A program made the position numbers and the translations under genes. The notes beneath the pieces are model-generated. The model was not told where the DNA came from. It made no database searches and was given only the letters and a program-made list of their open reading frames with translations. Of a stretch of DNA of 64,000 nt, positions 50,322 through 52,321 are shown one piece after another; the first letter of the stretch is position 1; every line of letters begins with the position of its first letter. Location of the stretch: the NCBI GenBank assembly GCA_000165345.1, contig CM000434.1:96001-160000 (forward strand), given 5' to 3'.

Positions 50322-52321
50322 TTATTTATTAAATATATAAGAAAATTCATTAATGGCTTTATTTAATTTTGATTTCATTAAATCATTAAATTCCAAAGAA
50401 ACTTTTATGGTATTAAGTAAATCTTTATATTCTTGTTTAGAATAAAGAAATTCATGAAATGATTTCTCAAATAATTTAAAATCTTTAATATTTAATATAC
50501 CATTATTATTATTATTATTATTATTATTATTATTATTAATGGTATATATAAGACAAGTAAGAAATTCAGGTTCAAAGAATTGAAATTGATTTTGTTGAAA
50601 TAATTCTTCAAGTAATTTATATTTATCATTAATCATTAAATTATTTGGATTTTGATTGGAATTCGAATCAGAAAATTGTTTAAATTCTTTATATTGTAAT
50701 AAATCCAATTTAATATTTTGAGAGACTTTTTTGATAGATTTATTTTGAGTTGAAGATCCAATTCTACTTATAGATAATCCAAGATTAAAAGCTGGTCTAT
50801 TTCCTTTAAAGAATAAATCACTATCAAGTACAATTTGTCCATCAGTAATTGAAGTAATATTAGTTGGTATAAATGATGAGAATTTATTAGATTGAGTTTC
50901 AACAATAGGTAAAGCTGTTAAAGATCCACCACCTTTTTCATCAGATAATTTTGATGATCTTTCTAATAATCTACTATGTATATAAAATATATCACCAGGA
51001 TAAGATTCTCTACCAGGAGGTCTTCTTAATAATAAGCTAATTTGTCTATAAGCATTAGCTTGTTTTGATAAATCATCATAAACAATTATACAATGTTGTC
51101 CATTATCTCTAAACCATTCTCCCATTGTACAACCAGTGAATGGAGCTAAGAATTGAAGTGATGCAGCATTTGAAGCTGTTGCTGCAATAACAATGGTATA
51201 TTTTAAAGCATCTAAAGAATATAAATAAAATAAAATATTAAAGTTATTGAATAATTTTTTTTTTATATTAAATTAAATTAAACTAACTTACCATATTTTT
51301 CCAGAATTTTAACAATTTGAGCAACACTTGATCTTTTTTGACCAATAGCAACATATATACAATATTTTCTGGTTTTAATATCATCATAAAATTTTCTTTG
51401 ATTAAGAATAATATCTAAAACAAGAGAAGTTTTACCAGTTTGTCTATCACCAACAATAGCTTCTCTTTGTCCTAATCCAATAGGTATAAGAGAATCAATA
51501 AATTTTATACCAGTAATAAGTTGTTCATTAATAGGTTTTCTATCCATAATACCTGGAGCTTTAACATCAATTTCTCTTTTTTCTAAAGAAATAATGGAAG
51601 GTTTACCATCAATAGGATTTCCTAAAGCATCAACGACTCTACCAAGAAGTTCTTTACCAACTGGACAATTAACAATAGTATTGGTTGAGATAACTTGATC
51701 TCCTTTTCTAATATTTCTATCTTCACCTAATATAACAATACCAACATGATCATTTTCAAGATTTAATGCCATACCTTTTTCTCCAGATGAAAATTCAACT
51801 AATTCTCCATATTTTACTGATCTAATACCATCAACTTGTGCAATTCCATCAGCAACAGATATTACTTGACCAATTCTTTTATTATTATCTTCATGAATTG
51901 TTGTTGTTGAATAATAAGAGGAAAAATGAGTATTTAGATATGAAGATGGTGGAAATAATGATGAAAATAATAATTGTTTATTAAGAAGAGTATTATTGGA
52001 ATAAAAAAATGGTGAATATGAATATGAATTATTATAGAAAGAATTGATATTATTTATAGAAAATGAATAACTTGGGATTTTGTAATATTTTGAAGATACT
52101 TTATTTAATATATTGTAATTTTTATTGTTATTGTTATTTTTAATATTATATATTATAATTTTATTAATAAGATGTCCAAAAAATCCAAAACGATGATTAT
52201 AATTCTTTGAAATATATTGATTAATTCCATAAATGTATTTTGGGATAATATTATAAAAAGAAGTACAATAGCAATGATTAAATAATTTCAGAGCATTAAT
52301 TGAGTTTCTATTAATAATCAT
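50322..52321 (-). CDS. ATP synthase F1 alpha subunit (nuclear copy) with about 150-aa Asn/Tyr/Ser-rich N-terminal extension; two exons: join(complement 52321..51292, 51211..50322)
   Basis: [62 protein letters not shown]...[22 protein letters not shown]...[38 protein letters not shown]...[23 protein letters not shown] in exon 1. Exon 2 reads (D)[88 protein letters not shown]...[14 protein letters not shown]. Walker A GDRQTGKT is the F1-alpha type. The intron 51212-51291 has GTAAGT donor (plus-strand acttac at 51286-51291) and AG acceptor, phase 1. Confidence 0.85.
51212..51291 (-). other. intron (GTAAGT...AG, 80 nt) inside ATP synthase alpha gene
   Basis: Removing it joins ...KILEKY + D + [13 protein letters not shown]... 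in frame, reproducing the conserved alpha-subunit sequence (cf human ...RLTDADAMKYTIVVSATAS). Confidence 0.8.

Follow-up and report, generated by a model that had tools for sequence, protein, structure and literature searches.

The intestinal species of Cryptosporidium retain only the α and β subunits of ATP synthase. The γ, δ, ε, c, and OSCP subunits, together with cryptic subunits of the enzyme, are found in C. muris and C. andersoni, whereas none of them is found in C. parvum, C. hominis, or C. ubiquitum (PMC5146892, PMC6133553). The genus as a whole is without any organelle genome (PMC7730227, PMC5146892). The enzyme of the apicomplexan Toxoplasma is complete, hexamer-forming, and rotary, and none of its lineage-specific subunits has been found in C. 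parvum (PMC6133553). That α and β alone are kept has been described and discussed from the genome papers onward (PMC5146892, PMC6133553, PMC7730227), and the question at issue is what job the orphan pair performs, and where the mitosomal membrane potential comes from, in an important diarrhoeal pathogen (PMC10530208). A role for the pair in sustaining that potential has already been published as a hypothesis (Huet et al. 2018; PMC6133553). The mitosome of C. parvum is known to have a CCCP-sensitive membrane potential (PMC10530208), and a mitosomal ADP/ATP carrier exists (PMC7730227).

Here we analyze a gene for an F1 α subunit that lies in a 64,000-nucleotide stretch of DNA (the window). The gene is already known, being annotated in several public Cryptosporidium genomes, and our results are not a discovery but sharpen the existing question.

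Results

The Window Is Cryptosporidium DNA

The window is chromosomal DNA of the C. parvum type. Across 22 kb it is 99.63% identical in nucleotide sequence to Cryptosporidium sp. 43IA8 (CP029785.1) and 99.33% identical to C. parvum (CM109966.1), and its identity to C. hominis is 97.2%. The genes at the locus (Got1, casein kinase 2 α, the ATP synthase α gene, a convergent gene of 529 codons, and IML1) lie in conserved synteny, with the same neighbors in C. muris as in C. sp. 43IA8 and C. parvum. The α gene, its synteny, and its intron are shared by all the Cryptosporidium species examined. In a protein search the top nine matches were all from Cryptosporidium and the next named eukaryote was Theileria; the predicted protein is 97% identical to that of C. 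hominis, 88% to that of C. meleagridis, and 60% to that of C. muris. The gene is orthologous to those that carry the annotation "ATP synthase alpha chain" in C. hominis (CUV06488.1), C. parvum (KAL5367932.1), C. tyzzeri (TRY51170.1), and C. sp. 43IA8 (WKS78168.1). These entries represent the same gene at 97–100% protein identity, with the same intron, the same neighbors, and the same place approximately 0.14 Mb from one end of a 1.31-Mb chromosome. The annotated proteins differ from that of the window only in the length of a run of asparagines and at one or two residues (the window protein has H132 and V301, as does that of 43IA8), and WKS78168.1 (C. sp. 43IA8) is the window protein minus one Asn. 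The exact 639-residue protein had no entry in the protein collection searched, and a literature search for a CryptoDB gene identifier gave no match.

A sequence-only reading of the locus had set it in a dictyostelid and had offered three explanations: a functional transfer of atp1 from mitochondrion to nucleus, a nuclear paralogue coexisting with a mitochondrial atp1, or a lineage in which atp1 had already relocated. Such a setting was suggested by the AT-rich sequence, the Asn runs, and the short GTAAGT introns, which look like Dictyostelium DNA, and by the presence of atp1 in dictyostelid mitochondrial genomes, which would fit a recent transfer or a paralogue. These signs are met by the identity of the window to Cryptosporidium chromosomes, by the protein matches, by a closest solved structure that is the Toxoplasma α subunit, by synteny that holds out to C. 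muris, and by the lack of a mitochondrial genome in Cryptosporidium (PMC7730227, PMC5146892). The probability that the window holds a dictyostelid transfer or paralogue is negligible, and the homology search, nucleotide identity, and synteny rule out a dictyostelid origin. The third explanation alone survives, and only trivially. A mitochondrial atp1 is lacking and the Cryptosporidium relatives examined share the same nuclear gene, the very situation that the sequence-only reading had named as telling against it. The mitochondrial genomes of apicomplexans are known to encode only cox1, cox3, and cob. Given that Cryptosporidium lacks even such a genome, a nuclear atp1 with an intron and a presequence is to be expected.

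Low G+C content and runs of Asn, which had been taken as signs of Dictyostelium, are features of this stretch of Cryptosporidium chromosome as well (23% G+C, as in the loci of its relatives). A literature search for a nuclear atp1 in Dictyostelium returned nothing relevant, and a scan of the 64-kb window for tRNA genes found none.

A Spliced Gene with a Conserved Intron

The two minus-strand exons and the GTAAGT...AG intron between them, as proposed from sequence, proved correct (Table 1). Joining 52321..51292 to 51211..50322 yields an intact 1,920-nucleotide open frame of 639 codons and a stop codon. Its splice junction reproduces the annotated α proteins of C. hominis, C. parvum, and C. sp. 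43IA8. Left unspliced, exon 1 would run to a stop codon after ...EKYGKLV (an open reading frame of 347 residues), and exon 2 lies in another frame. The gene contains no ambiguous bases, as compared with 69 N elsewhere in the window.

Table 1. Features of the ATP synthase F1 α gene (positions in the window)
Feature	Position	Strand	Description	Basis
Exon 1	51292..52321	minus	Codons 1–343 and base 1 of codon 344	
N-terminal extension, residues 1–147	51881..52321	minus	Rich in Asn, Tyr, Ser, and Phe; occupies the place of the OSCP-binding helix	
Walker A (P-loop), residues 291–298	51428..51451	minus	GDRQTGKT	Read from sequence
Spliceosomal intron	51212..51291	minus	80 nucleotides; GTAAGT...TTTAG; phase 1; 8.75% G+C	
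Exon 2	50322..51211	minus	Bases 2–3 of codon 344 to codon 639; stop codon 50322–50324	
Arg493 codon	50763..50765	minus	Equivalent of bovine/human α Arg373 (arginine finger)	Alignment, mature numbering
Microsatellite (AAT)12	50502..50538	minus	Perfect; encodes Asn12 in the C-terminal domain	

An intron interrupts the gene at the same site, between K(Y/N) and DAL, and in the same phase in all eight Cryptosporidium species compared. Its length in these species (51, 62, 73, 80, 80, 83, 87, and 190 nucleotides) is not restricted to multiples of three. The read-through of this intron that is annotated in chipmunk genotype I can be dismissed: the segment is a 51-nucleotide GTAAGT...TTTAG intron that is in frame by chance.

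The Product Is an α Subunit with a Retained Noncatalytic Nucleotide-Binding Site

Searches with Pfam models identified the N-terminal β-barrel (PF02874, residues 150–214), the nucleotide-binding domain (PF00006, residues 271–492, E = 4e-73), and the C-terminal domain (PF00306, residues 499–633), all above their gathering scores. The protein scored 621.6 bits against the NCBIfam equivalog model for atpA (TIGR00962), for which the cut-off is 484.45, and just 100.8 bits against the atpD (β) model. These scores agree with the identification as F1 α, with its three conserved domains, that had been made by eye. Among solved structures, to whose α subunits it is 55–60% identical, the top match was the α subunit of Toxoplasma gondii (PDB 6tmh and related entries; 569 bits, E = 1e-169), an apicomplexan protein that is likewise nuclear-encoded, and the match extends from the β-barrel to the C-terminus. 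We assign a probability of roughly 0.9 to the view that the gene encodes, in the nucleus of a C. parvum–type parasite, the α subunit of a mitochondrial-type F1 ATPase.

Seven residues of the Walker A motif (G291, D292, R293, T295, G296, K297, and T298) are invariant in our alignment of α subunits and the eighth, Q294, is nearly so, the motif of C. felis being GDRSTGKT. The DDLSKQ motif (residues 389–394), which is invariant in the alignment, is also kept. As judged by these two motifs, the noncatalytic nucleotide-binding site is retained. Also preserved are S464, R482, and R493, the equivalents of bovine Ser344, Arg362, and Arg373, which α contributes to the catalytic site of β; S464 and the last of these, the arginine finger that serves the β site, are invariant in the alignment. 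A predicted structure for the C. hominis orthologue, computed from an alignment of 20 sequences, was poor (mean pLDDT 53.8, pTM 0.47), with pLDDT below 35 for residues 1–145.

Many Near-Invariant Positions Are Replaced and the OSCP Helix Is Absent

We compared positions whose conservation across 111 other α subunits is 97% or more. Of these 251 near-invariant positions, 56 (22%) are replaced in the window protein, as compared with 18 of 251 in C. muris, a species that has the whole enzyme, and the replacements are shared across the intestinal species. The TIGR00962 match begins at profile position 23 of 503, rather than at position 3 as in C. muris, and both the profile match and the alignment show that the N-terminal helix to which OSCP binds is absent; the ILEExI segment, which is kept in C. 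muris and Theileria, is replaced by sequence rich in Asn, Ser, and Tyr. The loop of the C-terminal domain equivalent to FAQFGSDLD has been rewritten, and (in bovine numbering) R161L alters GRGQRE and AGDV is replaced by SNKF beside the catalytic interface. Replacements such as these last two could impair assembly or catalysis. The loss of the helix marks the window protein off from the α subunits of complete enzymes, not from descent within the α family.

The C. muris protein is an orthologue (55–60% identity) with shared synteny and the same intron position and phase, but it retains the OSCP-binding helix, GRGQRE, ETQAGD, and FGSDLD, and it scores 788.7 bits against TIGR00962. The C. muris leader is shorter (68 residues, as against 148 in the window protein) and the intron longer (190 nucleotides, as against 80). 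The combination seen in the window protein, in which many positions are replaced and the helix is lost but Walker A and the arginine finger have been kept, is consistent with an enzyme reduced to α and β.

Could a complete ATP synthase nonetheless persist in intestinal Cryptosporidium, its other subunits having diverged beyond recognition while α works in a rotary enzyme? Many subunits of the apicomplexan ATP synthase did escape sequence searches for years (PMC6133553). However, the cryptic subunits as well as γ, δ, ε, c, and OSCP are detected in C. muris and C. andersoni but in none of the three intestinal species named above (PMC5146892, PMC6133553), the docking helix that C. muris keeps is gone, replacements at invariant positions are three times as numerous as in C. 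muris, and synthesis would be left without a proton-pumping respiratory chain (PMC5146892). We consider a complete enzyme very improbable.

The Gene Is under Purifying Selection

Within the intestinal clade, dN/dS is 0.06–0.19 for the β-barrel and nucleotide-binding domain, in a comparison of species whose dS reaches about 1.3, and 0.13–0.24 for the C-terminal domain; for exon 2 the values run from 0.06 to 0.24. The gene is maintained under strong purifying selection. The lost partner subunits, the many replaced positions, and a microsatellite of variable length within the coding sequence might be expected of a functionless relic on its way to becoming a pseudogene, but no species has a broken frame, the intron keeps its boundaries, the core is constrained at the divergence just given, the clade-specific replacements are fixed and themselves conserved, and the microsatellite changes by whole codons only. 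The relic reading is extremely improbable, and we regard it as ruled out by dN/dS.

The microsatellite accounts for the Asn-rich insertion that had been remarked upon in the C-terminal domain: it consists of 12 consecutive Asn specified by (AAT)12. The number of Asn varies from isolate to isolate: C. hominis has four, C. parvum (KAL5367932.1) eight, C. sp. 43IA8 11, and the window 12.

An Acid-Free N-Terminal Extension

The N-terminal extension, put at about 150 residues and described as rich in Asn, Tyr, and Ser by the sequence-only reading, is indeed present: 147–148 residues precede the β-barrel, as compared with 68 in C. muris. The 148 residues ahead of the barrel include 13 Lys and Arg, five His, and 26 Ser and Thr, and neither Asp nor Glu occurs in residues 1–143. 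If the residue frequencies found elsewhere in the protein applied, an acid-free stretch of 142 residues would have a probability of approximately 5e-8. All seven orthologues examined from the intestinal clade share the acid-free character in spite of poor sequence conservation. The extension is moderately constrained (dN/dS 0.27–0.78), and one 18-residue segment has a hydrophobic moment of 0.54, a suggestive value. We presume from its composition that the extension is a mitosomal targeting region.

Discussion

The role that we judge most likely for the α subunit is in a rotor-less matrix ATPase that would help to sustain the mitosome's membrane potential, although as a mechanism we give it a little less than an even chance. 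The acid-free, basic, hydroxylated N-terminus of 147 residues would direct import of the precursor into the genome-less mitosome, where α and β would form an α3β3 ATPase lacking both rotor and stator. This ATPase would hydrolyze imported ATP, and the mitosomal ADP/ATP carrier, in swapping ATP(4−) for ADP(3−), would help to sustain the potential needed for protein import. The carrier of C. parvum is broad in its nucleotide specificity and does not respond to classical inhibitors of ADP/ATP carriers (PMC7730227, PMC12343136), and for these reasons its electrogenic exchange in vivo is only presumed. A different origin for the potential, in the alternative oxidase, NDH2, and transhydrogenase, has also been put forward (PMC10530208). 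C. ubiquitum, which keeps α and β, is without the alternative oxidase and ubiquinone synthesis (PMC5146892), a gene set that favors the ATPase idea but falls short of proof.

It is less probable, and on balance unlikely, that α and β have been kept for some other purpose, as a nucleotide-binding scaffold, in a chaperone-like capacity, or in regulation, whether in the mitosome or elsewhere. The replacement of 22% of the near-invariant positions would fit such a role, as would an extension that, with its dN/dS of up to 0.78, might be more than a presequence, the lack of a reported ATPase activity for α/β, and the competing proposal for the potential (PMC10530208). Against it stands the preservation of the Walker A motif and of the equivalents of Ser344, Arg362, and Arg373, that is, of the positions for binding nucleotide and for completing the β site, which is the pattern predicted by continued catalysis. 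Moreover, the joint retention of precisely α, β, and the ADP/ATP carrier agrees with the membrane-potential model (PMC6133553, PMC12343136).

Improbable, in our judgment, is a more elaborate form of the α3β3 ATPase: a natural hexamer, free of rotor and stalks, that has been remodelled for that state (the 56 fixed replacements, the loss of the OSCP helix, and the altered FGSDLD loop) and whose unusually long, moderately constrained extension would be more than an import signal. The extension would persist in the mature subunit and take on a new function, for instance by anchoring it to the membrane or to a partner in place of the lost stalks.

What do these findings mean? Because the window is from Cryptosporidium, the framing of the locus as a gene transfer in a slime mould carries no significance. 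The comparative details, namely which invariant positions were lost, which were kept, and how strongly each region is selected, amount to a concrete list of features that can be tested.

Finally, the membrane-potential model can be set against systems that are known. The proposed analogue is Trypanosoma brucei lacking kinetoplast DNA, which relies on an Fo-independent F1 and the ADP/ATP carrier (PMC6133553, citing Dean et al. 2013). There, ATP hydrolysis in the matrix and the electrogenic exchange of ATP(4−) for ADP(3−) furnish a potential for import in the absence of a respiratory chain. Yeast without mitochondrial DNA likewise depends for its potential on F1-ATPase and the ADP/ATP carrier. 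Both systems, however, keep γ, δ, and ε, and in T. brucei the compensation maps to γ. Intestinal Cryptosporidium encodes no central stalk, and thus an active species would need to be α3β3 alone. A precedent of a kind is provided by the F1 of the thermophilic Bacillus PS3, whose α3β3 assembles and hydrolyzes ATP without γ. That complex is an engineered laboratory subcomplex, less active and less cooperative than F1, rather than a natural end state.

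A Known Cryptosporidium Gene

The gene for the F1 alpha subunit of ATP synthase (ATP alpha) in the window is, by sequence comparison, a known and annotated Cryptosporidium ortholog. All nine top matches in a homology search with its product were from Cryptosporidium, with protein identities of 97% for C. hominis, 88% for C. meleagridis, 82% for chipmunk genotype I, 79% for C. ubiquitum, 70% for C. canis (77% for a second, shorter entry), 66% for C. felis, and 60% for C. muris. Theileria and alphaproteobacteria followed at approximately 55% identity, and the search returned no dictyostelids. 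The 90% cluster also includes proteins from C. parvum (KAL5367932.1), C. tyzzeri (TRY51170.1), and Cryptosporidium sp. 43IA8 (WKS78168.1), from the last of which the window protein differs solely by one additional Asn. At the DNA level, positions 40304-62320 match CP029785.1 (43IA8) with 99.63% identity and CM109966.1 (C. parvum) with 99.33%; across the gene region, identity is 97.2% with C. hominis and 89.8% with C. meleagridis. The order Got1-casein kinase 2 alpha-ATP alpha-convergent 529-aa gene-IML1 is common to the window, 43IA8, and C. parvum, and the order from Got1 to IML1 is unchanged in the distant C. muris.

We rejected a dictyostelid source on the strength of the exclusively Cryptosporidium top matches, the DNA identity of 99.33-99.63%, and the shared synteny. 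The value of 23% G+C that had pointed to Dictyostelium is likewise found at the orthologous Cryptosporidium loci. The sequence-only reading, with a dictyostelid in mind, had listed an organelle-to-nucleus transfer of atp1 as one of three explanations, an idea that falls with the organism: Cryptosporidium mitosomes lack a genome and draw all of their proteins from nuclear genes (PMC7730227; PMC5146892). An intron-bearing nuclear atp1 with a leader is thus what one would expect, and no transfer event is called for. There is no mitochondrial atp1, and the nuclear gene is shared by all relatives, a combination which that reading had itself named as counting against it. Its surprise came from misassignment of the organism; the gene was already known and is nothing new in kind.

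Gene Structure and Protein Identity

In other respects that reading was borne out in full, coordinates included, namely in joining two minus-strand open reading frames as exons of a single gene, in identifying the product as F1 alpha, and in describing an N-terminal extension and an Asn-rich insertion. Excision of the 80-nt intron (GTAAGT at its start, TTTAG at its end, 8.75% G+C), which splits a codon after the first base, fuses the frames into one of 1920 nt (639 codons plus stop). When the intron is kept, exon 1 stops after ...EKYGKLV and exon 2 is out of frame. Every test of descent places the spliced product in the F1 alpha family: it has each of the three F1 alpha/beta Pfam domains, it scored 621.6 bits with the NCBIfam alpha equivalog TIGR00962 (cut-off 484.45) and only 100.8 bits with the beta model, and its alignment to mitochondrial alphas of solved structure extends from the beta-barrel through the C-terminus, the best being that of Toxoplasma gondii (6tmh, E 1e-169).

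Features in and around ATP alpha (window positions)
Feature	Position	Strand	Remark
ATP alpha, upstream ORF	51278-52321	(-)	ORF listing and direct reading
ATP alpha, downstream ORF	50322-51125	(-)	ORF listing and direct reading
ATP alpha intron	51212-51291	(-)	
ATP alpha stop codon	50322-50324	(-)	
Junction of the convergent genes	50316-50324		neighbor ends at 50318
Remaining 265-aa ORF of neighbor	49521-50318	(+)	
Low-quality sequence	48252-49500		35/69 of the window's N characters in 48252-49127
G+C-rich palindrome	52566-52582		
Codon-periodic tandem repeats	59779-59999		
Codon-periodic tandem repeats	63049-63160		
Segment missing from CM109966.1	61952-62645		~694 nt

All eight Cryptosporidium loci have an intron of the GTAAGT...TTAG type that breaks the coding sequence at one common site, between ...LEK(Y/N) and DAL(K/N)YT..., and in one common phase. 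The intron is shortest in chipmunk genotype I (51 nt) and longest in C. muris (190 nt); in between are C. meleagridis (62 nt), C. ubiquitum (73 nt), the window and 43IA8 (80 nt), C. felis (83 nt), and C. hominis (87 nt). Because the intron sequence is free to diverge and the codons on either side are invariant, this comparative evidence argues that it is spliced. The public chipmunk genotype I annotation (SCFC02000047.1, positions 1501-3399 of the locus analyzed) reads through the intron because 51 nt keeps the frame, and it thereby includes the GTAAGT...TTTAG sequence as 17 spurious residues, GKFIINIIQLIVYFHSL. Unspliced single-exon fragments also stand in the databases as the old TU502 entry for C. 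hominis, at 349 aa, and as several metagenome calls of 263-347 aa.

Nei-Gojobori dN/dS ratios, calculated from a codon alignment within the intestinal clade, were 0.06-0.19 for the beta-barrel and nucleotide-binding part, 0.13-0.24 for the C-terminal domain, and 0.27-0.78 for the N-terminal extension. Judged by these ratios, ATP alpha is clearly maintained by selection, and the extension is under weaker constraint, yet not neutral. That the gene is a functionless relic is improbable in the extreme.

The first Asp or Glu of the window protein is at residue 144 of the 147-148 that precede the barrel, which include 13 Lys+Arg, 5 His, 26 Ser+Thr, 29 Asn, and 30 Tyr+Phe. Acidic residues make up 11.2% of the remainder, and an acid-free run of such length has a chance of about 5e-8. 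An acid-free, basic extension of 85-148 residues, variable in sequence, is present in every intestinal species; it has the composition typical of a matrix-targeting leader. A low-confidence structure model of the C. hominis ortholog gave this part a pLDDT of <35. The Asn run, encoded by a perfect (AAT)12 microsatellite and 4, 8, 11, or 12 residues long depending on the isolate, sits in a C-terminal domain loop that is variable in other alphas too.

Neighboring Sequence

The palindrome ACGGTACCCGGTACCGT lies in AT-rich intergenic DNA between casein kinase 2 alpha and ATP alpha, past the stop codon of the former and approximately 250 nt before the start codon of the latter. A GGTACC-type element is found at the equivalent position in C. 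hominis, C. parvum, 43IA8, chipmunk genotype I, C. ubiquitum, and C. felis, and was not found upstream of ATP alpha in the C. meleagridis or C. muris loci. GGTACC occurs 16 times in the window versus 1.66 expected (0/100 shuffles as high), with up to 11 of the 16 sites outside long ORFs, and may be a cis-regulatory motif.

Only 3 nt lie between the stop codons of ATP alpha and its convergent neighbor, so that the 3' UTR of each necessarily extends into the other gene. In the annotations this spacing is likewise 3 nt for C. hominis, C. parvum, and 43IA8, and it is wider in C. ubiquitum (5 nt), chipmunk genotype I (13 nt), C. felis (57 nt), and C. muris (approximately 450 nt). The neighbor, whose C. 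ubiquitum ortholog matches Pfam ATG14, is intact at 529 aa in 43IA8 and C. parvum (CM109966) and frameshifted in the window, probably through sequencing error in the older assembly rather than biology.

The segment missing from the C. parvum locus is intergenic, flanked by the gene for an aspartyl protease on one side and a gene of 860 aa on the other. It includes a (TA)18 run as well as three GGTACC sites, and the breakpoint has a 9-nt overlap; 43IA8 has the segment as far as its locus reaches. The two assemblies differ here through error or choice of assembly, or else the segment is polymorphic. Tandem repeats with periods of 6, 12, 24, and 36 within neighboring ORFs encode acidic Asp/Glu-rich and Gly/Ser/Asn-rich low-complexity runs.

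A Possible Role in the Mitosome

Among 111 non-Cryptosporidium alphas from the homology search, 251 columns were at least 97% conserved. The window protein has replacements in 56 of these, nearly all of them common to C. meleagridis, C. ubiquitum, C. canis, and C. felis, and C. muris in 18. The replacements in the window protein include (bovine/human mature alpha numbering) R161L (GRGQRE to GLGQRE), A331S, G332N, D333K, and V334F within the ETQAGDVSAY segment, and I361N, and the loop F403-D411 (FAQFGSDLD) is swapped for a different 13-residue sequence. Retained are P-loop K175/T176, D269/D270, S344, R362, and R373. The ILEExI N-terminal helix of F1 alpha docks OSCP/delta. By alignment the window alpha has no such helix, whereas C. 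muris and Theileria have one, and the atpA profile match starts at profile position 23 for the window and 3 for C. muris. This pattern fits an alpha that would still bind nucleotide and complete the beta catalytic site but no longer contact the peripheral stalk. A cryptic complete ATP synthase in intestinal Cryptosporidium is very improbable.

The analysis establishes the orthology, the structure of the gene, purifying selection, and which residues were kept and which lost. Beyond this we tentatively infer, with a probability of roughly 0.45, a mitosomal alpha3beta3 ATPase that contributes to membrane potential. The acid-free leader would carry the alpha precursor into the mitosome, where alpha would join beta as alpha3beta3 and hydrolyze ATP that the ADP/ATP carrier of the mitosome supplies. 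The swap of ATP(4-) for ADP(3-) would in turn contribute to the potential on which the import of proteins, those for Fe-S clusters among them, depends. The mitosome has a CCCP-sensitive potential (PMC10530208), and Huet et al. put forward an ATPase/carrier potential by analogy with Fo-independent trypanosomes (PMC6133553). That alpha and beta instead serve some different role is a less likely alternative, though one of some weight. What this orphan pair does is a real question, though one already recognized. In the alphas of complete enzymes the OSCP-binding helix is a functional hallmark; the window alpha differs from them in being without it, in line with the published loss of stalk subunits.
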